A program made the position numbers and the translations under genes. Below the pieces are notes generated by a model, which saw only the letters and a list, made by a program, of their open reading frames with translations, did not search any database and was not told the origin of the DNA. Below, piece by piece: positions 2 to 23,884 of a stretch of DNA of 32,000 nt. Position 1 is the stretch's first letter. Every line of letters starts with the position of its first letter. The stretch comes from Candidatus Saccharimonadota bacterium (lineage in GTDB: Bacteria > Patescibacteriota > Gracilibacteria > UBA4473), in assembly GCA_963677105.1 (NCBI GenBank), contig OY781871.1, forward strand, positions 450,001 to 482,000, read 5' to 3'.

Positions 2-2239
2 GCTTGGCGCTGTGACTCTTGTGGAGAAATTCATGTAGTTTCTTCTCGTGCAGAATTGGAGAAAAAAACGGGAAAAAAAGTAAATGATTTACATAAACAT
101 TTTGTGGATGATTTAACCTGGAAATGTGAAAAATGTTCCGGGAAAATGAAACGAATCGAAGAAGTGCTTGATTGTTGGTTTGAGTCTGGATCAATGCCAT
201 ATGCAAGTACGCATTATCCATTTTCTGAACTAAAAGAAGAGCAAAGTGCGGAAGATTTTGATTGTTCGAAAAATGAATTTAAATCAGCAGATTTTATCGC
301 TGAAGGACTGGATCAAACCCGTGGATGGTTTTACACATTACATGTTTTGGGATGTGCTTTATTTGGAAAAAATATTTTCAAAAATGTAGTTACAAACGGA
401 ATTGTTCTCGCGGAAGACGGACAAAAAATGTCGAAATCAAAAAAGAATTATCCAGATCCACATTTGGTATTTGATAAATATGGAGCGGATGCGATGCGAT
501 ATTATCTTTTGTCTTCGCCAGTTGTGCGTGGAGAAAACTTTCGTTTTTCCGAATCTGGAGTTGCAGAAGTATTGAAGTCTGTAATCTTGCCACTCCGAAG
601 TTCATATCAATTTTTCTCAACATACGCGAATATCGACGGATGGAATCCAACTGAATTCACGTTTATACGACATGGAGAAGGCGAACACAATGTGAAAAAG
701 ATTTACTCTGGAAAAGTCGATAACGATCATCATTTAACTAAAAAGGGAATTCAACAAGTCGTAGAAACTTCAAAAAACCTTGAAAACTTTGATATACTTG
801 TCGCTTCCCCGTTTATTCGTACACAAGAAACGGCTGAGATTATAAAAAATGAAACAGGATTTTCGGGAGAAATTATTACTGATGAACGAGTTCAAGAACT
901 CTCTTTTGGGAAACTGGAAGGACAGCCGTTTTTGTCTCGCAGAGAAAGAGTTGCTGAAAAAACTACTGAACAACCAGAGTCTGTAAAAAAACGGCTCTCA
1001 GCATTCCTGTCAGACCTGGGGAAAAAATATCCAGGAAAAAAGATTGTAGTGTGTAGTCACGGAGGAGTGCTCATGGCGTTAGATTCTCTTGAAGCTCGCT
1101 GGAAAACAACTGAAGAAATGCTCCGACTCCCTGTTGCACAAACAGGAAAAACTCGAACAATATTCCCCGAACCAGCATCTGAAAACGAACTTGATCAGTG
1201 GATTCTGTCTGAATTACAAGAGCTTTTACAAGATTATTGCAAAAAGATGGATGTATATGATCTCGAAGGAGCGTTACGTCAAATTCCCGTATTTGTTGAT
1301 AAATTAAACAACTGGTATCTTCGTCGAAATCGACAACGATTTTGGGCAAATGGATTGTCTGTAGAAAAGTCCGCTGGATATGCAACATTGCATCATGTGT
1401 TACAAACTATTGCGAAAATACTGGCTCCAATTTGTCCATTTTTTGCAGAAGAATTATTCCAAAATTTGGGTGGCGGAGATTCCGTACATTTAGAACTTAT
1501 CCCTCAATCACGAAACGATTGGAAGAACGAACCGCTTGATCAAAAAATGGATCAAGTTCGCGATATTGTACGTTTATCTGCTGGAATACGAGCAAAAGCA
1601 AAAATAAAATTACGACAACCACTTGGAAAATTACAGGTATTTGTTTCCAGTCCTGAAAATCTAGATTTAGACGTTATTGCCGCCGAATCGAATGTGAAAT
1701 ATATAGAAATATTATCTAAAGAATCCCTCAATAAAATCGCAACAAAAATAGTAAAAGTGAATGCGCGAATTGTGGGAAAAAAGTTTGGGAAAAAGGTTCA
1801 AGAACTCATTCAAAAGGGAAAATCTGGTGAGTTTACAGAAAAAGAAAATGGCTTCATCGAAATTGCAGGAGAAATGCTTTCTTCGGAAGAATATGAATTA
1901 GGATATTTAACCGCAGAAGGACTTGAGGCCGAAGCTTCTGCCACATCCGTCGTTCTCCTCGATACAACAATTACACCTGAATTAGAATTGGAAGGGATTG
2001 CTCGTGAAGTTATTCGTGCAATACAAGAACTACGAAAAACTTCTGGATTTGAAATTTCAGACAGAATCTCTATCGAGTGGAATACTGAGGACGAAAAAAC
2101 AATGTCCGCTATTACTCAATTTTCAGAAAAAATAACAAGTGAGGTATTGGCTGATTCACTAGAAAATAAACCAAACATATCAAGTGAACCAATTGTTGTT
2201 GATGATGTGAAAGTGTTCCTCTCTATTAAAAAGAGCTAG
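2..2239 (+). CDS. ileS: Isoleucyl-tRNA synthetase, type-2-like, 5'-partial (N-terminus outside window), with internal histidine-phosphatase insertion
   Basis: The frame of ORF 56..2239 stays open back to nt 2, and the track's M at 56 is a TTG codon. Motifs seen: WRCDSCGE, WFESGSMPY, KMSKS loop (GQKMSKSKKNYPDP), LNNWYLRRNRQRFW, and a C-terminal region typical of type-2 IleRS. Confidence 0.9.
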   Translation, partial: AWRCDSCGEIHVVSSRAELEKKTGKKVNDLHKHFVDDLTWKCEKCSGKMKRIEEVLDCWFESGSMPYASTHYPFSELKEEQSAEDFDCSKNEFKSADFIAEGLDQTRGWFYTLHVLGCALFGKNIFKNVVTNGIVLAEDGQKMSKSKKNYPDPHLVFDKYGADAMRYYLLSSPVVRGENFRFSESGVAEVLKSVILPLRSSYQFFSTYANIDGWNPTEFTFIRHGEGEHNVKKIYSGKVDNDHHLTKKGIQQVVETSKNLENFDILVASPFIRTQETAEIIKNETGFSGEIITDERVQELSFGKLEGQPFLSRRERVAEKTTEQPESVKKRLSAFLSDLGKKYPGKKIVVCSHGGVLMALDSLEARWKTTEEMLRLPVAQTGKTRTIFPEPASENELDQWILSELQELLQDYCKKMDVYDLEGALRQIPVFVDKLNNWYLRRNRQRFWANGLSVEKSAGYATLHHVLQTIAKILAPICPFFAEELFQNLGGGDSVHLELIPQSRNDWKNEPLDQKMDQVRDIVRLSAGIRAKAKIKLRQPLGKLQVFVSSPENLDLDVIAAESNVKYIEILSKESLNKIATKIVKVNARIVGKKFGKKVQELIQKGKSGEFTEKENGFIEIAGEMLSSEEYELGYLTAEGLEAEASATSVVLLDTTITPELELEGIAREVIRAIQELRKTSGFEISDRISIEWNTEDEKTMSAITQFSEKITSEVLADSLENKPNISSEPIVVDDVKVFLSIKKS
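656..1177 (+). other. Histidine phosphatase superfamily (branch 1, PGAM-like) domain inserted in frame within IleRS
   Basis: Ordered motifs FIRHGEGEHN (RHG at 668-676), SPFIRTQETAEII, ELSFGKLEG and CSHGGV (His at 1058-1060). The segment lies between YANIDGWNP and ENELDQWILSEL, which in IleRS are normally joined by a short linker. Confidence 0.7.
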
Positions 2240-2254
2240 CATTTAAAACGACAA

Positions 2255-2296
2255 AAAGAAAAACTCTTCTCATAATATACGAGAAGAGTTTTTTGT
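2255..2296. terminator. Bidirectional rho-independent terminator between convergent ileS and the lipoprotein gene
   Basis: Stem ctcttctc (2264-2271) pairs with gagaagag (2281-2288) around a 9-nt loop. An A-run lies upstream and a T-run (2289-2294) downstream. Confidence 0.6.
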
Positions 2297-2314: not shown

Positions 2315-2572
2315 TTACTCTGCAACAACTTCTTCAATAACCTCATCTTCCATCTCAATCTCGTCCATATCAACTGCTCCACCTTCTTCTGCTTCTCTTT
2401 CCATTTCCATTTTTGCTTCGATAGCTTCTGTTACTTCTACAGGAAGAACTACCTCTACTACTTCTCCTTCTTCTACATCTACGTCTACAACAGGTGTTTC
2501 TGTAGCTGTGTTACACCCTGTAACTGCAAAACCTAACGTTAAACACAGAGCAATTCCTAATAACTTTTTCAT
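2315..2572 (-). CDS. Small, highly acidic lipoprotein (hypothetical)
   Basis: Signal peptide with lipobox-like MKKLLGIALCLTLGFAVTG|C. The mature part is E/V/D-rich and low in complexity. A possible TTGACA-N17-TTACAA promoter lies at 2605-2633 on the minus strand. Confidence 0.55.
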   Translation of the reverse strand: MKKLLGIALCLTLGFAVTGCNTATETPVVDVDVEEGEVVEVVLPVEVTEAIEAKMEMEREAEEGGAVDMDEIEMEDEVIEEVVAE

Positions 2573-2650: not shown

Positions 2651-5600
2651 TTATGGACAATCGTTCATATAGTTAAATGATTGTTGTGGTGTATATCGAT
2701 CGGAATTGCTTCCCCATCCACCAACATCATTGCTTATAAAGTCAGCAACAACACTACAAGATGTCGCATTAAATTTATTGCCATTCAGCATTAAAAGCTC
2801 CAATTGACTAAATCCACCAAATGAACTTGGGATTTCTCCACTTAACTGATTATTAGATAACAATATAGTCCTTAAGTTTGAACTTCCCAATGAGTTTGGG
2901 ATTTCTCCACTTAACTGATTATTGGATAAATTTAAATGAACAAGATCCAAATTCCCCAATGAACCTGGGATTTCTCCACTTAACTGATTATTAGATAACA
3001 ATATAGTCCTTAAGTTTGAACTTCCCAATGAGTTTGGGATTTCTCCGCTTAACTGATTATTAGACAATGCTAAATAATCTATTTCCCCCCACGAACTTAG
3101 TATTTCTCCATTTAAGTTATTAGAATCTAATTGTAATACTTTTAATCTGTCTAAATTTACTAACGAACTTGGGATTGTTCCAATTAAATTATTATTATTG
3201 AGGATTATTCTAAGACCTTCACAAGCCCTCGGATTTCCAAACATTATTCCTGCCCATTCATCTAGTGGATGAGCACTATTCCAATTTGTATTATCGGTCC
3301 AATTATCCCCGCCTGTAGAAATATAAAACTCCTCTAATGTAGCAATTTCACTTGCACTCCCTTCACAATGACATTCGTGGTTTGTACATGTACCTCCACA
3401 ATTTCCACAATTTAATGTATTTCCGCAGCCATCGTCTATCGTTCCACAATTATATCCAAGTGCTGTACAGGTTGTTGGTGTACAACAATCCTCCATATAA
3501 TTGAATGATTGTTGTGGTGTATATCGATCAGAATCAGTTCCCCAACCACCAACATCATTCGTTATAAAATCTTGAACAATACTACATGAATTCGCATCAA
3601 AATTATTATTTCCAAGAAATAACATATTTAAACCACTTATTCCTCCAAGCGAAGCTGGAATAATCCCACTCAAATCATTCCCTTGTAGAGATAGACGCCC
3701 CAAATTGCTCAAATTACTAACTTCAGATGGAATCTCGCCATCTAAATCATTATTAAGTAAAATCAAACTTGTTAATTCACTTAACTCTCCAAGCGAAGCC
3801 GGAATTTGACCAACCAATCCATTATTAACTAAATTTAATCCCGTCACACATTCATCTACCACTGTTACTCCATGCCATGTATCTATTGGATTACTTGTGT
3901 TCCAATTGGAATTATTGGTCCAACTCGCTCCATTTGTAGAATTATAGAAATCTATCAGTGCTGCTCGATCTCTATTAATACATTCGTTTTGACATTGTCC
4001 AGAAACATTACATGTCTCTCCCGTTCCACAACTTCCACAAGAAAGAGGCGTTCCACATCCATCATCTGGCGTTCCACAAACATATCCAAGTGCTGCACAC
4101 GTTGTTGGTGTACACGCACTGTCTTCTCCCAAAATCCAATTGAAACAGAACGGGAATGTTCTACATTCTCCATTAAGAATCCAATTAAAACAGAACGGAA
4201 AATCAACAAAGCTACATCCGGTAATTTCTTCCTGACAGGTTCCCCACCCAGTTAATACTGTTCCTGGAGGACATTCTTCTTCACAAGTTCCCGTTCCATA
4301 TGCCATAGTTCCTCTTTTTTTCGGAGAAATTGCACACATCACAAACTTTTCCTCACACGCTGATCCTGTATCAAGAAATGGAGAATTTATATCATTTTCT
4401 CCACACGCAGAAGTATCTGTTGTGATATTCTTTTCTGCTGGATCATTCAGTCCTACAAGAGAAAATATGTAAGATTCGAATGCTTTAATTGTGCTTTTTG
4501 CAGACATTCCATCATGCACAACATCAAATTCTGTTAATACTGGCTCAACGGGATCATATTGATTTATTTCAATTGGCTCTGCCGTCGAACAATTCCCAAC
4601 ATAATCACAGAGCACAAACTCATCACTCCCAGACAAACAAAAACCCTCTCCTGTAGAACAGAAATTTCCCGTTACTTCAAATGTATGAGAACTCGCTGGT
4701 AAACATCCTGTCGCATCTTGGCAAAAAACTTGTACATCAACTGGTTCATTTGTAAATTCTCCTGGAGCCAAGGTCATTCCTCCCGTAGATCTGTAATATT
4801 CAAAAGTAACAATTGGTGGTGTTGTGTCTATAAGTAATAATTGAGACAATTCTATTTCTAAATTCCCTATATTTTGTGGCACAATGTCTGATTGTGGAAT
4901 ATCAAGTTCCATATACACAAATCCATCATTTATTGTACTTGGAACAGTTGCGACAAAATCATAGTCATATTCATTAAGTGTTTGAAATACAACAGAATCT
5001 GTCGCTAAAACAGTTCCTCCTGATGTGCTCGGATTATCTAAAAACTTCACATCAACATGAATGTCTGTTGATATTGGGAAAATTGGTCCCATGTCTAAAT
5101 CTACGTGTCCAGTAAATTGCGCTTGCTGAAAATTAACATCCGCAGAATTTGGATTAACTGCCCATCCATCTGTGGGAGAAGAAGAAGTAACTGCCGCACT
5201 TGCTGTGGAAACAAAAAACGTTAGCAATAGCACCAATAATTTTATGTGACGGATATGATGAACAAACATAATAAATCCAATAATTAATCCTAATAAAATA
5301 ATTAAACTAATTATAATAGCTATTTGATCACGTGTCTCGCTAAACATAAAATCTTGGGTCATTCTCTCCATTGCAAAAGAAATATTCGTTTGTCCTTCTG
5401 CCGCATGAAATTTGCGGGACTTCTGTGTCGAAAATTTATATGAACCAATCGTCTTGGCTCGATGACGAACCTCAATCGAGATGTAAAGTTGTGCTGTCTC
5501 TTTTGCGATTGAAAATTCCACCTCCCCAGAAAATCTTCCAATAGAATCTGTTTGTATTGGCAACTCTTTTTCAAATATTATTTCTTCCGATGAATCCGCA

Positions 5601-6493
5601 ATTGTTATGTCTAATGTTAACGACTCCTCCCACAAAGAACTCGTTCCAGCAAAGGATACTATCACATCATCTCCCTCGTAAAAATATTCTTCAGGCGATA
5701 CTTCGAGTGAAGAAATCGTAGTAAACTCACCTTTAATGATAAGTGGTTGTTCTTTTATTCCCGTAACAGCTTCTTTCTTATGAAAAATTTGAACAGTTGT
5801 TTGATATCGACCAGGCATCTCTGGCAGATTAAATAAAATACTGAAATCCATTTTTTTTCCACTTAAAACTGTTTTTTCTGCAGAAATTTTTTCTTCAATA
5901 ATATCCCCCGAAGTACTCAATAATTGTGCTTTTGCAAAAAAGAGTCCATCTGCATGAAAGTTTGAAAAATTTGTTTGTGTAATTATATTTTTTTCATCTG
6001 CGAAAGAGTGAAATTTTTCTATGCGGGAAACTTTTTTTTCTTCTGTCGCTTTCTTTGGGAAAACTAATTTCATGGCACCTTGTGCTAATGTTTGAGCAAA
6101 AGAACCATTCATTGTTGCTTTCTGTAAAGCAATGATAAGTTTTGAATTTTCATCGACTAATACGTCTGAAAGATCAAATTCAAATGGAAGATTTAATTCT
6201 TCTGTTCCATTAAATGTGCGAACTAACGGTTCTTCAAATTTCCACGTAGTCGTATTTGATGCATCTACAACATGATATGAAATACGTGTAACTTCTCCAA
6301 TTGGTGCTGTTCCCCAAATTTTTCCACGCACTTTAAAAGGATTGCTTTCAGAATAGCTTGTTTGAGAAATGCTGAGATTTTTTATTGCTCGACTTTGAAC
6401 CCGAAGCGCCGAAACATTAGAAATTATACCGAAGAACAATAATGCCGTCAGAGAAAGTGTTCGAATCTTCATTATGTGTGTTTTATTTTTCAT
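2651..6493 (-). CDS. Giant cell-surface protein: signal peptide, N-terminal ectodomain, TM hairpin, beta-rich/Cys-rich region, and two [Cys-rich module + LRRNT + plant-type LRR + Cys cap] modules
   Basis: Continuous 1280-aa ORF starting at ATG 6493. N-terminal signal-like MKIRTLSLTALLFFGIISNVSA. Two adjacent hydrophobic helices at residues 391-434 (nt 5192-5323). LRR consensus LSNNQLSGEIPNSLG. LRRNT-like FYNSTNGASWTNNSNWNTSNPIDTWHGV. Repeated CTPTTCxALGYxCGxxDDGCGxxLxCGxCG. Confidence 0.8.
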   Translation of the reverse strand: MKNKTHIMKIRTLSLTALLFFGIISNVSALRVQSRAIKNLSISQTSYSESNPFKVRGKIWGTAPIGEVTRISYHVVDASNTTTWKFEEPLVRTFNGTEELNLPFEFDLSDVLVDENSKLIIALQKATMNGSFAQTLAQGAMKLVFPKKATEEKKVSRIEKFHSFADEKNIITQTNFSNFHADGLFFAKAQLLSTSGDIIEEKISAEKTVLSGKKMDFSILFNLPEMPGRYQTTVQIFHKKEAVTGIKEQPLIIKGEFTTISSLEVSPEEYFYEGDDVIVSFAGTSSLWEESLTLDITIADSSEEIIFEKELPIQTDSIGRFSGEVEFSIAKETAQLYISIEVRHRAKTIGSYKFSTQKSRKFHAAEGQTNISFAMERMTQDFMFSETRDQIAIIISLIILLGLIIGFIMFVHHIRHIKLLVLLLTFFVSTASAAVTSSSPTDGWAVNPNSADVNFQQAQFTGHVDLDMGPIFPISTDIHVDVKFLDNPSTSGGTVLATDSVVFQTLNEYDYDFVATVPSTINDGFVYMELDIPQSDIVPQNIGNLEIELSQLLLIDTTPPIVTFEYYRSTGGMTLAPGEFTNEPVDVQVFCQDATGCLPASSHTFEVTGNFCSTGEGFCLSGSDEFVLCDYVGNCSTAEPIEINQYDPVEPVLTEFDVVHDGMSAKSTIKAFESYIFSLVGLNDPAEKNITTDTSACGENDINSPFLDTGSACEEKFVMCAISPKKRGTMAYGTGTCEEECPPGTVLTGWGTCQEEITGCSFVDFPFCFNWILNGECRTFPFCFNWILGEDSACTPTTCAALGYVCGTPDDGCGTPLSCGSCGTGETCNVSGQCQNECINRDRAALIDFYNSTNGASWTNNSNWNTSNPIDTWHGVTVVDECVTGLNLVNNGLVGQIPASLGELSELTSLILLNNDLDGEIPSEVSNLSNLGRLSLQGNDLSGIIPASLGGISGLNMLFLGNNNFDANSCSIVQDFITNDVGGWGTDSDRYTPQQSFNYMEDCCTPTTCTALGYNCGTIDDGCGNTLNCGNCGGTCTNHECHCEGSASEIATLEEFYISTGGDNWTDNTNWNSAHPLDEWAGIMFGNPRACEGLRIILNNNNLIGTIPSSLVNLDRLKVLQLDSNNLNGEILSSWGEIDYLALSNNQLSGEIPNSLGSSNLRTILLSNNQLSGEIPGSLGNLDLVHLNLSNNQLSGEIPNSLGSSNLRTILLSNNQLSGEIPSSFGGFSQLELLMLNGNKFNATSCSVVADFISNDVGGWGSNSDRYTPQQSFNYMNDCP
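2775..3215 (-). repeat. Coding tandem LRR array with 69-nt (23-aa) period, including a 138-nt higher-order duplication
   Basis: The core gggatttctcc[a/g]cttaactgattatt recurs at 2829, 2898, 2967 and 3036. Segments 2829-2923 and 2967-3061 are 94/95 identical. Confidence 0.85.
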
Positions 6494-6568: not shown

Positions 6569-8017
6569 ATGCATAACCCTCGCCGACCTCGAAAATCATT
6601 TCGTACTCCTTCTCGATCATATAGAAGCAGAAGAAAACGAAATAACCACAGTTCTAAAAGACTAATCTTCTTTTTAGTAATTATTAGTGTGTGTGTTTGG
6701 GGAATTCGAACTATTACCTCTCGCGGAAATAGTGTTTCAGCAGAAGCAACTATTGAAATTCGTCGTGGAATTATCGAGTTTTCATTAAATGGGGAAGATT
6801 TATGGACACGAGGAAATTCTGGACAAAAATTTCTGGAAGGAGACCGCGTTCGATGTACTGGAAATTGTGAAGCATCTGTACAATTGTTAGACGGCGGAAG
6901 CGTCATTGTCATTGCGCCGAATACAGAAATCTCTTTTGACGAGCTACAACAAAAATCGTCTGGGACGAAAAAAGTTTCTATTTTTGTGAAAACGGGAACT
7001 CTCTGGGGGACGGTTGCCGCAAATGATTTTTCAGAAAAGAATTCCCATTTTTTAGTGCAAACTGAATCGAGTGAAATTGATGTAAAAGGAACGCTTTTTA
7101 ATCTTGATGTAGGTCCCGAATCTCTTCTGCGCATTTTACAGGGAGAAGCTTCTCTGCGTCTCGCAAATGAAAATAAAAAGAAAGAAGAACCGTTTCTTGT
7201 GAATGAGGGACATATGGTTCCTCTCAAACAGGTTTCTTCAAATAATTTTGATGCGAATGAAATCATTGAAAAAATAGATCCAGAATTTGAAGAATCTGAA
7301 TGGAACTTAAAAAATCTCGAACTTTTTCGTCCCCAAGAAGCAGCTGAAATTCGTCACAGGATTGAAAGAACTGCTTCTCCATCAACACAAGATCCGAGTA
7401 AAAATGGACTTGATTCTCCCGTAATTCAAACACCAGCTCCAGGTGCAATTATTCCAGCAGCACAAGATATGTTGAGCTTGGAGGGAACTGCTCCGGTCGA
7501 TGCTTACAGAATTAGTGTAAACGGATACATTCTTACAAAATTTCAGCCAGGAGATCGGAAGTGGTCCTACTTTGCAAGTAAAAAATTTGGAACACTTGTT
7601 CCGGGGAAAAACACGTTCAAAGTAGTTTCAATTTCACGCGATGGAAAAGAATCGGCGCCAGCCGTTCTTGAGGTAACATACAATGCAACGAGTGATCCCG
7701 TAGTGGTAGAAGAGTCTGAATCAGATTTTCCAGTCCCAGTAATTCAATTTCCTTCCCTTGCCGATGCCACTCAAGCATTTAATGCAACTGAACCAATTCT
7801 TCATATTACAGGAATTGTTGATCCACGAACTGTCGCCGTGGAAGTAAACGGATTTCGACTGAAAAAGTTTAAACCCGGAAATATCGAATGGAAATATATT
7901 GCAAATGCAAACTATGGAAATATGGACTTGGGAGAAAACATTTATACTGTCGTAGCAATTGGTCCCGAAGATGAACGATCTTCTGCTGTCCTTCGTGTAA
8001 ATTATGTTCCTCAATAA
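6569..8017 (+). CDS. Membrane-anchored FecR-domain-like protein with two C-terminal Ig-like repeats
   Basis: Arg-rich N-terminus followed by a TM helix (LIFFLVIISVCVWGI). FecR-like segment GDRVRCTGNCEASVQLLDGGSVIVIAPNTEISF...VKGTLFNLDV. Two roughly 70-aa repeats (VNGYILTKFQPGDRKW... and VNGFRLKKFKPGNIEW...) at about 7477-7690 and 7800-8014. Confidence 0.55.
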   Translation: MHNPRRPRKSFRTPSRSYRSRRKRNNHSSKRLIFFLVIISVCVWGIRTITSRGNSVSAEATIEIRRGIIEFSLNGEDLWTRGNSGQKFLEGDRVRCTGNCEASVQLLDGGSVIVIAPNTEISFDELQQKSSGTKKVSIFVKTGTLWGTVAANDFSEKNSHFLVQTESSEIDVKGTLFNLDVGPESLLRILQGEASLRLANENKKKEEPFLVNEGHMVPLKQVSSNNFDANEIIEKIDPEFEESEWNLKNLELFRPQEAAEIRHRIERTASPSTQDPSKNGLDSPVIQTPAPGAIIPAAQDMLSLEGTAPVDAYRISVNGYILTKFQPGDRKWSYFASKKFGTLVPGKNTFKVVSISRDGKESAPAVLEVTYNATSDPVVVEESESDFPVPVIQFPSLADATQAFNATEPILHITGIVDPRTVAVEVNGFRLKKFKPGNIEWKYIANANYGNMDLGENIYTVVAIGPEDERSSAVLRVNYVPQ

Positions 8018-9047
8018 CGTGCGCTTCTTTGAATATTCTGATTCCGTATCAAAAGAATGGGACGACTTTGTTCTCAATTCTGAACGTGGATCTATTCATC
8101 AACTCTCTTCTTGGAAACCCTTTCAAGAAACTATTTCTGGACGCGGACCAGTTCTCGGTTGGGGAATAAAAGACGATTCTGAAAAAATTCTCGCTACAAC
8201 ATTTGTCGTTGCAATGGACACGGGATTTATGGGAAAAAAATGGTGGTATTCTGCTCGAGGGCCAGTTTTTGATGATGAAGAATGTGGACAAATGCTCTTA
8301 GAATATGTTGCAAAAGAGTTGAAAAAGAAGGGTGGAATTTTTTGGAGATTTGATCCGTATGTCACAAAAAAAGAATTACAAAAACTTCAAGTTCAAACTC
8401 GATTCGCAACTCAAAATTACCAACCAACTGATACACTTATTCTTGATCTCACAAAGACGGAAAATGTTCTGCTTTCAGAAATGAAACGCAAAGGACGATA
8501 CAACATTAATCTGGCGAAAAAGAAAAATGTGAAATGCGTAAAAATCACTGGAAAAAATGTTTCTGAAAAAGACCTGAATGATTTCTGGAAATTGAATAGT
8601 GAAACCACAAATCGCGATTCTTTCTCCGGTCATGAAAAAAAATATTACCGAAATTTTTTAAAACAAATTTCTCCTTTCGCAGATCTATTTTTTGCAGAAG
8701 CGGAAGACGAAACTCGTATCGCAACAGCGATTTCTACATTTGCTGGAGATAAAGCCATTTATTATTTTGGTGCTTCTACTTCAAATCCCAATTATCGAAA
8801 TATGATGGCTCCATATTTATTGCAATGGACCATGATTCAGGAAGCGAAAAAAAGAAAATGTAAAACGTACGACTTTTTAGGAATTGCCCCAGAAAATGAT
8901 CCAAAGCATGCATATACTGGGATTTCTGAATTTAAATGGAAATTTGGAGGAACGCGAAAAACTTTTGCTCCTGGAAAAGAAATCGTATTTCATAAACTTT
9001 GGTATTGGCTCTATCGAATTGCAAAAAAATTAAAAAATTCTATTTGA
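8004..9047 (+). CDS. FemAB-family peptidoglycan interpeptide-bridge aminoacyltransferase (FemX/MurM-like)
   Basis: Family-typical segments SSWKPFQE, KRKGRYNINLAKK, YYFGASTSNPNYRNMMAPYLLQW, YDFLGI and ISEFKWKFGG. The gene overlaps the upstream gene by 14 nt. Confidence 0.8.
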   Translation: MFLNNVRFFEYSDSVSKEWDDFVLNSERGSIHQLSSWKPFQETISGRGPVLGWGIKDDSEKILATTFVVAMDTGFMGKKWWYSARGPVFDDEECGQMLLEYVAKELKKKGGIFWRFDPYVTKKELQKLQVQTRFATQNYQPTDTLILDLTKTENVLLSEMKRKGRYNINLAKKKNVKCVKITGKNVSEKDLNDFWKLNSETTNRDSFSGHEKKYYRNFLKQISPFADLFFAEAEDETRIATAISTFAGDKAIYYFGASTSNPNYRNMMAPYLLQWTMIQEAKKRKCKTYDFLGIAPENDPKHAYTGISEFKWKFGGTRKTFAPGKEIVFHKLWYWLYRIAKKLKNSI

Positions 9048-13678: not shown

Positions 13679-13753
13679 GGGTCGGTAGCTCAGTGGTAGA
13701 GCATCTGGCTCTTAACCAGTTGGCCGTGAGTTCGATCCTCACCCGACCCACCA
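13679..13753 (+). tRNA. tRNA-Lys (anticodon CTT), CCA encoded
   Basis: Manual cloverleaf. Acceptor GGGTCGG/CCGACCC, D-arm GCTC-AGTGGTA-GAGC, anticodon loop CTCTTAA, T-arm GTGAG-TTCGATC-CTCAC, discriminator A followed by CCA. Confidence 0.9.
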
Positions 13754-14431: not shown

Positions 14432-15619
14432 ATGGCTGACACATTTCAGCGAACGAAACCGCACGTCAACGTCGGAACCATTGGTCACGTCGACCACGGT
14501 AAAACTACGCTGACTGCAGCTATTACTTTCACTTTGGCAAACCGGTTGCCATCAGATGTGAATAAACAAATTGCGTTTGATCAAATTGATAACGCACCAG
14601 AAGAGAAAGCACGTGGTATTACTATCGCTACTTCTCACCAAGAGTACGAGACAGAAGCTCGTCACTACGCACACGTTGACTGTCCAGGTCACGCCGATTA
14701 TGTTAAAAACATGATTACTGGTGCGGCTCAGATGGATGGAGCAATTCTTGTAGTTGCTGCTACTGATGGTCCAATGCCACAGACAAAAGAGCACATCTTA
14801 TTGGCTCGACAAGTTGGAGTTGATCACATTGTTGTCTTTATGAACAAATGCGACATGGTTGACGACGCAGAAATGCTTGAGTTGGTAGAAATGGAAGTTA
14901 CTGAAGAACTTGCAAAACGTGATTATAACGATGTTACGATTATTAAAGGATCTGCTTTAAAGGCATTAGAAGATCCAACTGGAGAATGGGGAGACAAAAT
15001 CATGGAATTGATGGCAGCTCTTGATAAAGATATTCCAGAACCAAAACGAGAAACTGATAAAGATTTCTTGATGCCAGTTGAGGATGTATTCTCAATTAAA
15101 GGTCGTGGAACTGTTGCCACAGGACGTATTGAACAAGGAAAAGTCAACACTGGTGACGAAGTAGAAATCGTTGGAGTGAAGGCAACACGAAACGTGGTTG
15201 TTACTGGGGTTGAGATGTTTAAGAAAACGCTTGATGAAGGTCTTGCAGGAGATAACGTTGGTCTATTGCTTCGAGGAATTGAGCGAGAAGAAATTGAACG
15301 TGGTCAAGTTATGGCTAAAAAAGGATCCATTACACCACACACTAAATTTGAGTCTGAGGTATACGTATTGAAAAAAGAAGAAGGAGGTCGTCACACACCA
15401 TTCTTCAAAGGATATAAACCACAATTCTTTATTCGAACTACTGATGTTACTGGTGAGGTTGAATTACCAGCAGGAGTAGAAATGGTTATGCCTGGTGACA
15501 ACGCAAAATTCGTTGTTACACTTATCTGCCCAATTGCGTTGAACGCTGGAACTCGATTCGCTATTCGAGAAGGTGGACGAACAGTTGGAGCTGGAGTTGT
15601 TACAAAAATTATTGAATAA
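14432..15619 (+). CDS. tuf: Elongation factor Tu
   Basis: Full-length 395 aa with [18 protein letters not shown] and NKCD GTPase motifs, and EF-Tu-like sequence throughout. Confidence 0.97.
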
Positions 15620-17157: not shown

Positions 17158-18456
17158 CTAAAGAAGTGATTTTAAAATTTCCCGTGCAACTTCTCTGTCA
17201 TCAAACGAAATTACTTGTTTCCCAATTGTTTGTGTTTTTTCGTGTCCTCTTCCGGCAATTAATACCGTATCGCCCTTTTGTGCAGTATATAGTGCATATC
17301 GTATTGCTTCATATCGATCTTCTATTTCAAAAAAACGATCTCCTTCTTTTCTTCCCACGTATTGTCGCGCGTGTTTTGCAATCTTTTTAGGACTATCTTT
17401 ATATGGATCATCTGTCGTCAAAACAAATTCATCCGAAAGTTCTGCGATAATTTGTGCTGCTTCTCCCCAATTCGACGGAGCTCGACCTCCAGCTCCTCCC
17501 CAAATGGTAATAATTCGTCCGGAAGTAATCGGACGTAATGCGGAAAGAACCGCCTTCAGCGCAGAAGGTTTATAAGAAAAATCAACAATCGTTGCAAAAT
17601 CTTGCCCTTCATCTATCGATTCAAGTCTCCCTGGAATAGATCTAAATTTTTTAAGAGCGCGTTGTATATCGTTCATAGAAACACTCATGGATTGTGCCAC
17701 AGCAATCGCAGACATAAGATTCTCTAAGTTATGACGACCAACAATTTTAACCGTCATATCTGCCTCAAAATTTGGCGCACGAAGAAAAAACTCTGTACGG
17801 TCTGCAAAAAATTCAAATTTTTCTGGACGAATATCCGCATTTTCTTGGAGGGAAAATGTCCATATTTTATCCGCTACTTCGTCTTTAAACATTCCCACAT
17901 TTTCATCATCGTTATTCAAAACCATTTGCTTTGGAATTCCCGGTTTTCGTTTGCTCCGATTAAGAGATTTAAATAATCGCGATTTGGTATGAATATAATC
18001 TGTAAAGGTTTCATGATAATCTAAATGTTCTCCATCAAAAATATTCGTGAGAGTCGCAATATCAAAATTTACTCCCCACAAACGATTTTGGTCAATTGCA
18101 TGAGAAGACACTTCTAACACCACTGTGTCGCATTTTGCACGTAACATTTGACGCAACATTTTTTGCGTTTTCCATGGACTGAGCGTCGTTCTCAAGGTTG
18201 TATTAGGAATTGTTTTTTCTCCAATATGAAATTGGATTGTTCCAATCGCTCCACACGTATGTCCTGTATTTTGAAGAAGAAAATGAACTAATTCCACTGT
18301 TGTTGATTTCCCAGAAGTTCCCGTAACACCTATGACACGCATTTTATTTGCCGGAAATCGATACAAAACTGCAGCAATAATGGCTGATATTTTATGATAC
18401 GTTAAACGCAAACTTGAGCGTTCCGGAATGAGTGTGCGAAAGAATTTCATCATCAT
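17158..18456 (-). CDS. murE: Mur ligase, MurE-like (UDP-MurNAc-L-Ala-D-Glu:diamino acid ligase) with a short N-terminal domain
   Basis: P-loop VIGVTGTSGKSTT. Also DGEHLDYHETFTDYIHTKSRLF, GRHNLENLMSAIAV and RLE. DDPY (17401-17412) sits where DAP-type MurE has DNPR. Confidence 0.75.
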   Translation of the reverse strand: MMMKFFRTLIPERSSLRLTYHKISAIIAAVLYRFPANKMRVIGVTGTSGKSTTVELVHFLLQNTGHTCGAIGTIQFHIGEKTIPNTTLRTTLSPWKTQKMLRQMLRAKCDTVVLEVSSHAIDQNRLWGVNFDIATLTNIFDGEHLDYHETFTDYIHTKSRLFKSLNRSKRKPGIPKQMVLNNDDENVGMFKDEVADKIWTFSLQENADIRPEKFEFFADRTEFFLRAPNFEADMTVKIVGRHNLENLMSAIAVAQSMSVSMNDIQRALKKFRSIPGRLESIDEGQDFATIVDFSYKPSALKAVLSALRPITSGRIITIWGGAGGRAPSNWGEAAQIIAELSDEFVLTTDDPYKDSPKKIAKHARQYVGRKEGDRFFEIEDRYEAIRYALYTAQKGDTVLIAGRGHEKTQTIGKQVISFDDREVAREILKSLL

Positions 18457-18594: not shown

Positions 18595-18679
18595 GGGTCG
18601 ATGGCGGAGTGGTCAATCGCAGCAGACTGTAAATCTGCCGACTTAGTCTACGATGGTTCGAATCCATCTCGGCCCACCA
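18595..18679 (+). tRNA. tRNA-Tyr (anticodon GTA), long variable arm, CCA encoded
   Basis: Acceptor GGGTCGA/TCGGCCC. Anticodon arm GCAGA-CTGTAAA-TCTGC. Long variable arm CGACTTAGTCTAC. T-arm GATGG-TTCGAAT-CCATC. Confidence 0.9.
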
Positions 18680-20038: not shown

Positions 20039-20082
20039 CCCTGATGCTACACTCTGAGCGAGTTTTTTGTATCCATAAAATT

Positions 20083-21588
20083 ATGTGCGAGGAAAATCAT
20101 TTGATTGCAGAGCGTCGAGCGAAAATTGCTGAGTGGGAAAAGGCTGGATTTCCAGCGTATGCACAGAAGTTTGATCGCACGCACACTGCGCAGGAAGCAC
20201 GAGAATTTTGCGAAGAAACAACGCTCCGAGAAGTTCCTGAGATTGTTGAAAACCCAAATATTCAGGCAAAAATATGTGGTCGAATTATGAATTTTCGATC
20301 AATGGGAAAATTAGCTTTTTTAAAAATACGAGATGTTTCTGGAGATTTTCAAGTTTGTTTGATGAAAAATCTACTGGGAGAAGATTTTAAAAAGTTTGAA
20401 AAATTATTAGATCTGGGTGATTTTTGTGGATTTGAAGGAGAATTTTTTCTCACAAAACACGGAGAGCCAACATTACTTTCAACGGAAGTAACACCTTTGG
20501 CAAAAACATTACGACCACTTCCTGAAAAATTTCACGGACTTGCGAATCGGGAAGGCTGTTATCGTCAAAGATATCTTGATTTGTTAACGAACGATGAAAC
20601 GTTTCGTCGATTTCAAATTCGGTCTGAGGTTATCCGATTAATTCGTGAATTTTTACATAAAAAACAGTTTACTGAAGTTGAAACACGAACACTTCAAGCT
20701 CAAGCTGGAGGCGCTATGGCAAAAGTATTTGAAACACATCATAACGCACTAGATCATGAATTTGTGTTACGAATCTCTCTTGAGCTAGAACACAAAATGC
20801 TTCTTGCCGGACGATTCGAGCGAGTATTCGAGATTGGAAAATGTTTCCGAAATGAAGGAATCGATCCAAGTCATCTGCAGGAATTTACGCTTCTTGAATG
20901 GTATGCAGCATATGCAGACATTACAGATAATATGAATTGGACTCAGGCGATGATTCAATCAATTATTCCTAAAGTATTGGGAGATTCTAAATGTATGGTT
21001 TTGGATAAAAGCGAAAAAAAGGTAGAAATCGATTGGAACGGAAAATGGCCACGAGTGAAGTTTTCTGATTTACTAAAAAAATACGCCAAGATTGATATGC
21101 AAACTATTTCGCTTAAAGAATTGCGTGAATATGCGATAAAAAAATGTGATTTACCGACCGAAGAAGCAATGAAAATGGGGCGAGGGAATCTCCTAGATCA
21201 CGTGTATAAAAAGACGGCTCGTCCATCGTTAATTCAACCAACATTTGTTGTGGATTGGCCAACCGAATTGAAACCTCTTGCTCGACCAAATGACGATGGA
21301 ACAAGTGATGTATATCAATTGCTTGTCGCTGGATGGGAAATTGTAAATTCTTACGGAGAACTTATTGACCCACGTGTTCAAAGAAAACTCCTTGAAGATC
21401 AATCTGCTGCCAAAAGTGCGGGAGATGAAGAAGCAATGGAAGTGGACGAAGAATTTCTTACTGCAATGGAACATGGCCTTCCACCGATGACTGGATTTGG
21501 AATGGGAATTGATAGATTTGTTGCGCTCATCACGGGACAACCAAATCTCCGAGATGTAGTTTTACATCCACTTCTTCGTCCCGAATAA
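20083..21588 (+). CDS. lysS: Lysyl-tRNA synthetase, class II
   Basis: Class II motifs FRNEGIDPSHLQEFTLLEWY and GFGMGIDRFVALITG, with an OB-fold N-domain. ATG 20083 (MCEENHLIAERRAKI...) fits the usual LysRS N-terminus better than ATG 20044, but the start is uncertain. Confidence 0.9.
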   Translation: MCEENHLIAERRAKIAEWEKAGFPAYAQKFDRTHTAQEAREFCEETTLREVPEIVENPNIQAKICGRIMNFRSMGKLAFLKIRDVSGDFQVCLMKNLLGEDFKKFEKLLDLGDFCGFEGEFFLTKHGEPTLLSTEVTPLAKTLRPLPEKFHGLANREGCYRQRYLDLLTNDETFRRFQIRSEVIRLIREFLHKKQFTEVETRTLQAQAGGAMAKVFETHHNALDHEFVLRISLELEHKMLLAGRFERVFEIGKCFRNEGIDPSHLQEFTLLEWYAAYADITDNMNWTQAMIQSIIPKVLGDSKCMVLDKSEKKVEIDWNGKWPRVKFSDLLKKYAKIDMQTISLKELREYAIKKCDLPTEEAMKMGRGNLLDHVYKKTARPSLIQPTFVVDWPTELKPLARPNDDGTSDVYQLLVAGWEIVNSYGELIDPRVQRKLLEDQSAAKSAGDEEAMEVDEEFLTAMEHGLPPMTGFGMGIDRFVALITGQPNLRDVVLHPLLRPE

Positions 21589-22231: not shown

Positions 22232-23740
22232 TCAATGCAAAAATGCTCGAGTTCCCGTAAGTACCATCGAAATATTTAATTCATCTGCTTTTGCGAAAAC
22301 TTCCTCATCACGAATAGAACCTCCTGGCTGAATAATTGCGGCCACTTTTGCTGCCCCTGCAATTTCAATTCCATCTGCAAATGGGAAAAATGCATCACTC
22401 GCAATAACGGCTCCTTCTGCTTTTTCTCCTGCATTTTCAATCGCAATTTTCATCGCTTCTACACGAGAAGTTTGTCCTCCGCCTTTCCCAATCATTGCCC
22501 CATCTTTTACTACCACAATTGCATTCGATTTTACTATTTTTACAATTTCCCATGCTGTGAGCATATCTTTTAATTGGTTTTCTGTTGGCTTATTTTCTCC
22601 TACAAATTCAACATTTTTCTCGTCAATCGTATGAATGTCCAAGTCTTGAACAAGCGTTCCTCCTCGAACTCGACGAAGCGCAATATCTTCTGATTTTTCA
22701 TGAAAATTTGGTACACGTAATACTCGAAGATTTTTCTTTGTTTTCAAGAGTTTCAGAGCATCATCATCAAAATCTGGTGCAATAACTACTTCGTTGAAAA
22801 ATGAAATAATATTTTCAGCCACAGCTTTACTTACTTTTTTATTAATCGCAATAATTCCCCCAAAAGCAGATGTTTGATCTCCGTTTCCCCAACTTCGATT
22901 CCACGCATCTTCAATCGTTTCTCCTGTTGCCGCACAACACGGAGTTGCGTGTTTTATGATACAAACAAACGGTTTTTCAAAAGAAATTGCTAACTCAAGC
23001 GCTCCAGTTGCGTCCTGATAATTGTTGTACGACATTGGTTTTCCGTTCAGCAATTCTGCATCAACAAGATTTACTCCATTTGAAAATGGATCGCGAAGTA
23101 ATACTGCGGGCTGATGTGGATTTTCTCCATAACGAAGTCCTCCTATGGGTGTTTTTTTTGCGCCTTCTGACCAAAATTTTGCAATCAATAAATCGTAATG
23201 TGCTGTCATTTCAAATACTTTCGTTGCTAAGTCTTTTCGTGTTTTGAGAGAAATTCCTCCCGCTGTTTTTAATTCCTCAATAATGTTTTCATAATCCGAA
23301 GGATCAACTATCGGTGCACAAAATTCATAATTTTTTGCAGCGGCACGAATCATCGACGGTCCACCAATATCAATTTGTTCTACTTTGTCTTCAAATGTTT
23401 TCTCTGGATCCATGTATGCATTTTTAAATGGATACAAATTCACAATCACAAGATCTACATTGTCGATATTATTCTCCTTGCAAAAGTTCTGATGTTCTGC
23501 GTTATTTCGCAAACTCAAAATTCCACCAAAAATCTGTGGAGTCAGTGTTTTAATTCGTCCTTCAAGCCCTTCTGGGAACCCGGTAAAATCCGCCACTTCG
23601 ATCATATTTTTCACTCCTGCTTCTTTCAGTGCACGAAATGTTCCACCAGTAGAAATAATGCGATAATCGAGCTTTTCTAATTCAAGAGCAAATTCAGCAA
23701 TACCTGATTTATCTGAAACGGAAATAAGTGCGTTTTTCAT
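22232..23740 (-). CDS. purH: Bifunctional AICAR transformylase / IMP cyclohydrolase
   Basis: MGS-like N-terminus ALISVSDKSGIAEFALEL...STGGT. C-terminus ends GGSIRDEEV...TGTRAFLH. The start is set at ATG 23740 (MKNALISVSDK); the 39-codon upstream extension was rejected. Confidence 0.9.
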   Translation of the reverse strand: MKNALISVSDKSGIAEFALELEKLDYRIISTGGTFRALKEAGVKNMIEVADFTGFPEGLEGRIKTLTPQIFGGILSLRNNAEHQNFCKENNIDNVDLVIVNLYPFKNAYMDPEKTFEDKVEQIDIGGPSMIRAAAKNYEFCAPIVDPSDYENIIEELKTAGGISLKTRKDLATKVFEMTAHYDLLIAKFWSEGAKKTPIGGLRYGENPHQPAVLLRDPFSNGVNLVDAELLNGKPMSYNNYQDATGALELAISFEKPFVCIIKHATPCCAATGETIEDAWNRSWGNGDQTSAFGGIIAINKKVSKAVAENIISFFNEVVIAPDFDDDALKLLKTKKNLRVLRVPNFHEKSEDIALRRVRGGTLVQDLDIHTIDEKNVEFVGENKPTENQLKDMLTAWEIVKIVKSNAIVVVKDGAMIGKGGGQTSRVEAMKIAIENAGEKAEGAVIASDAFFPFADGIEIAGAAKVAAIIQPGGSIRDEEVFAKADELNISMVLTGTRAFLH

Positions 23741-23884
23741 AAGAGAAGTTTTATAAATTCGCCGCGAGTGTACTTTTTTTGGCGAACTTTTCCAGTAAAA
23801 TTTAAACAACGGAAAAGAGCTCTGTGTGTAAACACCGAGCCCATTTCTTTTAAACAATCAATATCAACCAGTCGAGGGAATTGC

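Follow-up and report, generated by a model that had tools for sequence, protein, structure and literature searches.

A histidine phosphatase domain inside isoleucyl-tRNA synthetases of the candidate phyla radiation

Bacterial aminoacyl-tRNA synthetases are usually seen as architecturally conservative, the acquisition of new domains being mostly a eukaryotic affair. Why, then, does a bacterial isoleucyl-tRNA synthetase (IleRS) carry a histidine phosphatase in one of its loops, and what could this domain do there? The question is raised by a stretch of 32,000 nucleotides from a Candidatus Saccharimonadota bacterium (assembly GCA_963677105.1, contig OY781871.1, positions 450,001 to 482,000), the whole of which is called the window below. 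The 3' part of the IleRS gene, ileS, lies at its left edge, and an earlier sequence-only reading had reported about 170 extra in-frame residues there with the hallmarks of a histidine phosphatase. The best explanation we can offer is a bifunctional protein, an IleRS with a tethered phosphomonoesterase of the PhoE/CobC type. We are nearly certain of the identity and activity of the phosphatase; the explanation taken as a whole has, in our judgement, about an even chance of being right.

The inserted domain and its host synthetase

The window frame is open from nt 2 through to the TAG at 2237-2239 (+) and encodes the C-terminal 745 aa of IleRS, the start of the gene lying beyond the left window edge. 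Amino acid positions below are those of this fragment, and the structure used for comparison is the IleRS2 of Priestia megaterium (PDB 8c8u). The fragment includes the following features, the insert position being called site A:

2..649 (+), catalytic Rossmann domain, C-terminal half (tRNA-synt_1; Pfam aa 1-180, E 5e-47), and stem-contact helix; aligns to 8c8u residues 457-665
aa 4/7 and 42/45 (+), two Cys-x-x-Cys knuckles, within 2..649
aa 58-64 (+), CWFESGS, within 2..649
aa 101-110 (+), EGLDQTRGWF, within 2..649
nt 425-439 (+), KMSKS, within 2..649
aa 184-211 (+), stem-contact helix ending ...ANIDGWNP, before the insert
650..1180 (+), histidine phosphatase branch 1 insert of 177 aa (His_Phos_1), aa 217-393, site A
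1181..1624 (+), helical anticodon-binding domain beginning ENELDQWILSEL (Pfam Anticodon_1 aa 398-541, E 2e-30; 8c8u from residue 671)
aa 437-448 (+), arginine motif NNWYLRRNRQRFW, inside the anticodon-binding domain
1670..2239 (+), type-2 IleRS C-terminal domain (DUF5915; Pfam aa 557-744, E 6e-30) and stop codon

The full-length protein (P0001, 1233 aa) was found on a 962-kb contig and is 100% identical over the window part. It scores 895 bits against the NCBIfam ileS equivalog TIGR00392, the cutoff being 621, and KMSKS or KMSKR is retained in nearly all phosphatase-bearing IleRS; the host is therefore taken to be a true IleRS. Class I and CP1 editing motifs can also be read in P0001: PHYGHILAG (HIGH-type), WTTTPWTLPSN and GTGIVHQAP...GEDD. 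The C-terminus, which is of the DUF5915 type and not the zinc-binding one of bacteria, and the best PDB matches, which are 8c8u and cytoplasmic eukaryotic IleRS, place the protein among type-2 enzymes. On the best reading the host is an ordinary functional type-2 IleRS of a Peribacteria/Gracilibacteria-type bacterium of the candidate phyla radiation (CPR) that uses the standard genetic code.

Pfam PF00300 (His_Phos_1) matches aa 220-360 of the fragment with E 9e-28. The excised insert gives E 2e-29 and 103 bits against the same profile, well over the gathering cutoff of 21.7, so membership of the superfamily, which had been proposed from motifs, is borne out. Aligned with 8c8u, residue 218 of the query falls on chain residue 665 and residue 394 on 671, so that ~175 inserted residues take the place of a linker of ~5. 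This agrees with the extra length noticed earlier and with the placement then given, between the helix ending ...ANIDGWNP and the first Anticodon_1 helix. Base composition over the insert is unremarkable. When modelled alone with AlphaFold2, the insert has a predicted local distance difference test score (pLDDT) of 94.8 and a predicted template modelling score (pTM) of 0.90; in the model of the 745-aa fragment its pLDDT is 93-98, with an overall pTM of 0.80, and linkers of ~6 and ~8 residues tie it to helices 184-211 and 396-417. The models thus predict an autonomous alpha/beta domain on two short linkers, the separately folding lobe for which the sequence-only reading had suggested a check. 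Its fold is of the PGAM type: Foldseek searches of the PDB gave probability 1.00 to many PGAM-fold phosphatases with template modelling (TM) scores up to 0.85, the matches including PhoE (1h2e, TM 0.85), glucosyl-3-phosphoglycerate phosphatase, CobC and PspA-type enzymes.

The catalytic residues occur in the order that the superfamily requires (R223-H224-G225, R273, E299, H353). They were tallied over the embedded domains of homologues:

668..676 (+), RHG motif with Arg223, nucleophile His224 and Gly225; Arg and His invariant in 106/106 embedded domains
689..691 (+), Asn230, phosphate-pocket residue of RHGxxxxN; invariant in a 27-sequence alignment and present in 102/105 domains tallied
818..820 (+), Arg273, second catalytic Arg, in the SPxxRTxxTA motif; 105/105 domains tallied
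896..898 (+), Glu299 of ELSFG, the expected proton donor; Glu in 104 domains, Asp in 1
1058..1063 (+), His353-Gly354 of CSHGG, with the second catalytic His; His in 105/105 domains tallied

The positions given earlier for RHG (nt 668-676) and for the second His (nt 1058-1060) are exact, and the Arg/His/Arg/His set described as intact is also invariant among homologues. The alignment of 27 sequences, which covers all site groups, shows Ser-Pro, Thr-Ala, Glu323 and Arg331 to be invariant along with Asn230. The set Arg223/His224/Asn230/Arg273/Glu299/His353 is intact and has been held invariant over long divergence. Over 53 site-A homologues, the insert has a mean identity of 42% to the window protein, as against 51% from the anticodon-binding domain to the C-terminus and 71% in the catalytic half. 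The insert has thus changed hardly faster than the anticodon-binding part, and purifying selection acts on it about as strongly as on the domains of the host.

Membership of the superfamily does not make the domain a mutase. The term "PGAM-like" used in the sequence-only reading holds at the superfamily level; at the level of curated NCBIfam equivalogs the insert reaches no cutoff among cofactor-dependent phosphoglycerate mutase (dPGM), CobC, SixA and PspA. Its scores are 79.5 bits for dPGM_arch (cutoff 225), 28.7 for TIGR01258 (81.7), 75.8 for CobC (162.9), 29.1 for SixA (74.5) and 48.8 for PspA (350). With all scores under the curated cutoffs, a true phosphoglycerate mutase, CobC or SixA was rejected. 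The insert spans Pfam profile positions 2-154 of 194, stopping short of the last quarter, and its 177 aa compare with ~230-250 aa for a dPGM domain with its C-terminal tail. By these measures it would be a phosphatase-type member of the superfamily and not a mutase. One record at JGI, P0010, bears the name [quoted passage not shown], and this name, together with the shared superfamily, would favour the idea that the insert is the cell's own cofactor-dependent mutase fused to IleRS. We consider this very improbable given the length, the missing last quarter, the two mutase scores and the fact that the structures closest by sequence are phosphatases. Such automatic names can mislead metabolic reconstructions of these bacteria. 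An anti-phage defence protein was considered as well and dropped, since no PADLOC model matched the insert.

Could the architecture be an artefact of chimeric assembly, or a selfish element, intein-like or mobile, that gets removed or has no function? PF00300 is present in 106 of the 120 best IleRS homologues, down to ~40% identity, and in 65 of these 106 it sits in exactly the site-A loop. The phosphatase-bearing homologues are drawn from NCBI, JGI, ENA and Logan assemblies; the architecture occurs in >100 independent protein clusters, and the same junctions recur in >60. A chimeric assembly, which the sequence-only reading had named as a way in which it could fail, is ruled out by both junctions being common to many independent assemblies. 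As that reading had stated, the window ORF (open reading frame) runs across the insert with no stop and no frameshift, and there is no intein-type junction. No direct repeats flank the insert junctions, and no Hint or intein domain is matched by Pfam in the window IleRS fragment. The insert begins Thr-Glu-Phe and ends ...PEPAS before ENE, so the pairing of a Cys/Ser/Thr N-junction with a C-terminal His-Asn is missing. An intein or mobile insertion was rejected on these features. Mobile DNA can enter these genes, as the IleRS of a Peribacteria metagenome-assembled genome (MAG), L025, has an in-frame IS200-like Y1 transposase domain, and this is what an artefact or selfish element has in its favour. 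Against the shared junctions, the absence of intein features and repeats, and a conservation of the insert that resembles that of the host domains, we regard such an origin as almost certainly wrong.

Insertion sites, distribution and history

The sequence-only reading had described the insertion in one gene. The insertion is real, yet other genes have it too: it is widespread among the IleRS of CPR, occurs at three further sites and is also found in valyl-tRNA synthetase (ValRS). For sorting, 179 phosphatase-bearing proteins were assigned to sites defined by flanking motifs of IleRS:

Site B1, after the first Cys-x-x-Cys knuckle and before DLHK
Site B2, within the second knuckle and before MRRIPEVLDCWFESGS
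Site C, between CWFESGSMPYA...YPF and PADFIAEGLDQTRGWF
Site A (window), between ...ANIDGWxP and NELDxWI

Site A alone is occupied in 79 of the 179 proteins, B1 alone in 57, B2 alone in 19 and C alone in 5. Combinations are rarer: B1+A (6), B1+B2 (5), C+A (3), B2+C (1), B2+A (1) and B2+C+A (1; L005, its three modules confirmed by Pfam). The last two proteins (P0173, P0222) fell outside the four sites, and both are ValRS. A phosphatase-bearing IleRS thus has 1-3 modules. Examples with sites B1, B2 and C are P0059-P0118, and further related examples are L003, L005, L009, L012, L014 and P0122-P0130. In the window IleRS, sites B1, B2 and C are short, empty loops. CPR ValRS with 1-4 phosphatase modules are P0179, P0222, P0121, P0173 and L071 (179-3550), also P0212 and P0240; their modules lie at valS profile positions ~423-430, which would correspond to IleRS site B1.

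Going by record names, those of GTDB genomes included, the trait is found in Peribacteria/Peregrinibacteria, Gracilibacteria, Saccharibacteria, Paceibacterota, Campbellbacteria and Falkowbacteria, the Gracilibacteria including genomes that read TGA as sense. In the same scan the phosphatase was absent from the type-2 IleRS of Delongbacteria, Bacteriovoracaceae, Spirochaetales and other non-CPR groups.

Phosphatases are not the only passengers of these loops. Site C holds an acetyltransferase-type GNAT domain in P0005, L004 (3571-7791) and L025 (2428-7818), a P-loop kinase-like AAA_18 domain in P0160 and a YdeN/RBBP9-type serine hydrolase in P0251 (PDB 1uxo, E 2e-19); site A of L025 holds an AAA_18/AAA_33 domain. 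The L025 ORF codes for a 1797-aa IleRS which has phosphatase, GNAT and kinase-like inserts besides the transposase domain (Y1/HUH, PF01797, motif DHVHMV, aa 353-477, in frame in the CP1 region); it comes from one MAG and may be a misassembly. These loops are general insertion hot spots in CPR.

Non-phosphatase in-frame inserts of ~145-160 aa were also seen in the IleRS ORFs L032 (site B2), L055 (in CP1, after P0055 coordinates ~297-305) and L015 (after ~217-220).

When each embedded domain is compared with those outside its own host protein, the best match is a domain from the same site in 192 of 195 cases (A 89/89, B1 66/68, B2 27/28, C 10/10). Where a protein has more than one copy, these share 17-32% identity, as against up to 90%, typically 36-88%, with the best same-site copy in another protein. 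Domains from different sites share 33-40% identity, which does not exceed their identity to free-standing Clostridia phosphatases of 180 aa (35-41%). The domains group by site and not by host protein, and each site has its own old phosphatase lineage. In neighbour-joining trees the clades of the IleRS core broadly match those of the phosphatase, and proteins without the phosphatase nest within phosphatase-bearing clades. One of these, P0052 (1106 aa), is nested in the site-A clade and has at the site-A loop a 32-residue remnant beginning KEFSFL. As this remnant (KEFSFLPCDILDD...) resembles the first strand of the phosphatase, P0052 is best seen as a case of secondary loss. The data show that the domain descends vertically along with its synthetase and has gone missing secondarily from a few relatives. 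The simplest reading of these comparisons would be several old, separate insertions followed by vertical inheritance and sporadic loss.

The commonest free architecture of the subfamily, in a search of representatives (P0131-P0268), is a tandem two-domain protein of ~410 aa, and two adjacent 177-aa phosphatase genes were found in Clostridia (L085:4371-5534). Such tandem proteins and gene pairs hint that the phosphatase domains work in pairs. The genes next to free-standing relatives in Clostridia MAGs code for NUDIX, PBP or a second phosphatase. Beside ileS of P0055, a relative without the insert that has a natural linker of 8 residues, there is no free phosphatase gene, the neighbour being a YbaK-type tRNA_edit gene.

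A fusion of another kind was also noticed: P0229 (579 aa) has a QueC domain (queuosine biosynthesis) with a C-terminal phosphatase of the same subfamily.

Function of the embedded phosphatase

In the proposed bifunctional protein, a complete and compact phosphatase sits in a surface loop between the helix that precedes the anticodon-binding domain and the first helix of that domain. By analogy with PhoE, CobC and the Aquifex riboflavin-pathway phosphatase, it would hydrolyse phosphomonoesters via a phospho-His224 intermediate, and its substrate would most likely be a small phosphorylated metabolite or nucleotide. What ties the phosphatase to the synthetase would probably be tethering, by which the two are co-expressed at a fixed stoichiometry and co-localised with the translation apparatus; it is unlikely that a fixed channel leads to the aminoacylation or editing site. 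Tethering is suggested because four loops are used, with 1-3 copies per IleRS and up to 4 per ValRS, and because unrelated small enzymes sometimes occupy the same loops. An RNA-binding signal was sought from charge, and the embedded domains proved near-neutral, not basic (median isoelectric point ~6.2). Since position and copy number vary, the domains are near-neutral and the nearest characterised relatives act on small substrates, we favour a tethered small-molecule phosphatase over a module acting on tRNA at a fixed point.

Several considerations weigh against this proposal. Repeated independent insertion into both IleRS and ValRS points to a functional link beyond the permissiveness of the loops. 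In yeast IleRS, Arg736 and Arg739 bind the anticodon loop (PMC11685878). Site A is at the end of helix 184-211, whose residue ~200 would correspond to yeast Asn660 (the alignment offset is approximate), and RRNRQR, the likely counterpart of Arg736/Arg739, sits in the loop that follows helix 421-442, at that same bundle end. Site A would then share its bundle end with the arginine motif that binds the anticodon loop, which makes a tRNA-directed role at this site plausible, and the site-A module may lie near the anticodon stem-loop. In the window clade the Glu299-Glu323 region, a putative substrate "cap", is ~18 residues shorter than in the other site groups, and a short cap could mean an open active site fit for large substrates. 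Besides, the other architectures were found with a profile built from embedded domains, which makes the search a biased one, and the trees are neighbour-joining trees with no support values that do not fix the number of insertion events.

A rival reading is that the phosphatase acts on something that IleRS handles, "healing" the tRNA or the enzyme before charging. Candidate substrates would be a terminal or blocking phosphate on tRNAIle, whether a 3'-phosphate, a 2',3'-cyclic-phosphate product or a toxin-added phosphate, a phosphorylated nucleotide by-product or phospho-IleRS. Such coupling would account for the repeated recruitment of separate phosphatase lineages into IleRS and ValRS, for the topological closeness of site A to the arginine motif and for the short putative cap; it is in line with the existence of the QueC-phosphatase fusion, and the AAA_18/AAA_33 kinase-like domains beside the phosphatase in P0160 and L025 recall kinase-plus-phosphatase RNA end-healing. 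We nevertheless find it rather unlikely, as the placement relative to the tRNA path varies from the catalytic knuckles to the loop before the DQTRGWF strand and the anticodon-binding domain. The three other sites lie in the catalytic domain, far from the arginine motif, and ~70 Å separate the wobble base from the CCA end in yeast IleRS. The copy number of 0-3 per IleRS, the near-neutral domains and the lack of a phosphatase gene adjoining ileS in relatives that have no embedded phosphatase also speak against coupling, and we know of no histidine phosphatase that acts on RNA ends. A still more doubtful extension would treat CPR class Ia synthetases as modular platforms for tRNA-directed repair or modification enzymes, whose passengers may include a GNAT, an esterase, a PNK-like P-loop kinase and the histidine phosphatase, the last acting on ends or adducts; this phosphatase may then free tRNAIle or the synthetase of a blocking phosphate ahead of charging, as part of an integrated tRNA healing or anti-toxin system.

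Alternatively, the domain might have a structural or regulatory role: it might offer a surface for dimerisation or docking, or tune IleRS as a sensor of some ligand, with catalysis being incidental. The many free relatives that are tandem proteins or adjacent gene pairs suggest paired action, and with linkers this short and a pTM of 0.80 the insert may be docked rigidly to the anticodon-binding domain. Yet the five catalytic residues and Asn230 are invariant at an overall identity of 35-40% between site groups, which would be hard to account for unless catalysis were selected; we think this view improbable. The tethered phosphomonoesterase remains the explanation that we prefer.

By the sequence evidence, then, an essential synthetase harbours a second, apparently active enzyme, an arrangement which has arisen at four loops and in two synthetases. 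Phosphatase modules persist across a large and little-studied radiation with very small genomes. Should the phosphatase act on tRNA or on the synthetase, translation would turn out to have a further, new layer of quality control or defence. Otherwise the family shows clearly how nature can use essential proteins as scaffolds for enzymes unrelated to them, and it maps permissive insertion loops, which would be useful in class I synthetase engineering.

Neighbouring genes and known systems

Downstream of ileS the window contains the following features:

2259..2293 (unstranded), 16-bp G+C-poor hairpin with T-runs on both sides (terminator-like scan, 0.2 expected by chance)
2315-2572 (-), small, very acidic protein with a lipoprotein-like N-terminus (LGFAVTGC), adjoining the next gene
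2651-6493 (-), protein of 1280 aa with an N-terminal hydrophobic segment, Cys-rich repeats (CGTxDDGCG) and leucine-rich repeats
6569-8017 (+), FecR-domain protein
8004-9047 (+), FemAB-family protein (the family moves amino acids from aminoacyl-tRNA to peptidoglycan)
13679-13753 (+), tRNA-Lys(CTT)
14432-15619 (+), EF-Tu
17158-18456 (-), Mur ligase
18595-18679 (+), tRNA-Tyr(GTA)
20044-21588 (+), class II synthetase of the Asp/Lys/Asn type
22232-23857 (-), PurH

The hairpin lies between the convergent ileS and 2315-2572 (-) genes and is probably a bidirectional terminator. The products of 2315-2572 (-) and 2651-6493 (-) are probably surface proteins. All long window ORFs read through in the standard code, which would be consistent with a Peribacteria-type genome that is not TGA-recoded.

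The sequence-only reading knew of no described aminoacyl-tRNA synthetase with an internal phosphatase. In the full-text literature, subscription journals being outside its coverage, we too met no account of a synthetase with a histidine phosphatase in it, and the AARS Online description mentions neither phosphatase nor CPR. The domain is new to papers but not to automatic annotation: PF00300 is already precomputed by pipelines, and the record name of P0010 flags it. Synthetase accessory domains and the phosphatase superfamily are both known already; the multi-site, multi-copy pattern is the unexpected element.

The best solved relative of the insert by sequence is the Aquifex aeolicus ARAPDP phosphatase of riboflavin synthesis (9MMH; E 5e-13, 30% identity; PMC12051542). 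Fold and catalytic residues are alike, but the Aquifex enzyme is a free-standing protein of 203 aa with a defined metabolic substrate, whereas the window domain has 177 aa and lies inside IleRS. The best superposition is with the broad-specificity phosphatase PhoE/YhfR of Geobacillus (1H2E/1EBB; TM 0.85, root-mean-square deviation 2.4). PhoE and the alpha-ribazole phosphatase CobC (6NRU, 6E4B) are, like the insert, small phosphatase-type members and not mutases; they differ from it in sequence (23-24% identity, with the insert under the CobC cutoff) and in the putative cap, which is shorter in the window clade. On the side of the host, the closest solved structure is that of the P. megaterium IleRS2 (8C8U, E 4e-99; PMC10485003). 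Its domain order is the same, DUF5915 included, with the short linker (665-671) at the place of the 177 inserted residues.

A branch-1 histidine phosphatase fused end-to-end with a nucleic-acid enzyme is known from the bifunctional RNase H/acid phosphatase of mycobacteria (Rv2228c/RnhC type). Its NCBIfam model, NF005567, is matched by the insert in the phosphatase half (E 3e-18; 66 bits, below the cutoff of 326). In contrast to the end-to-end fusion of the Rv2228c/RnhC type, the window phosphatase is inserted within the synthetase. There is no curated model for IleRS with a histidine phosphatase; a curated precedent for IleRS with an extra enzyme domain is NF040702, [quoted passage not shown]. 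Its passenger differs from that of the window protein, which scores 291 bits against a cutoff of 1999, and it is P0005, L004 and L025 among the relatives of the window gene that carry a GNAT like NF040702.

Another parallel is the CP1 editing domain of class Ia synthetases, which is likewise hydrolytic, inserted in the synthetase body and inherited with the synthetase. CP1, however, is universal in IleRS, ValRS and leucyl-tRNA synthetase (LeuRS), has a fixed position and acts on mischarged tRNA, whereas the phosphatase module is lineage-restricted, varies in position and number and would carry out a different chemistry.

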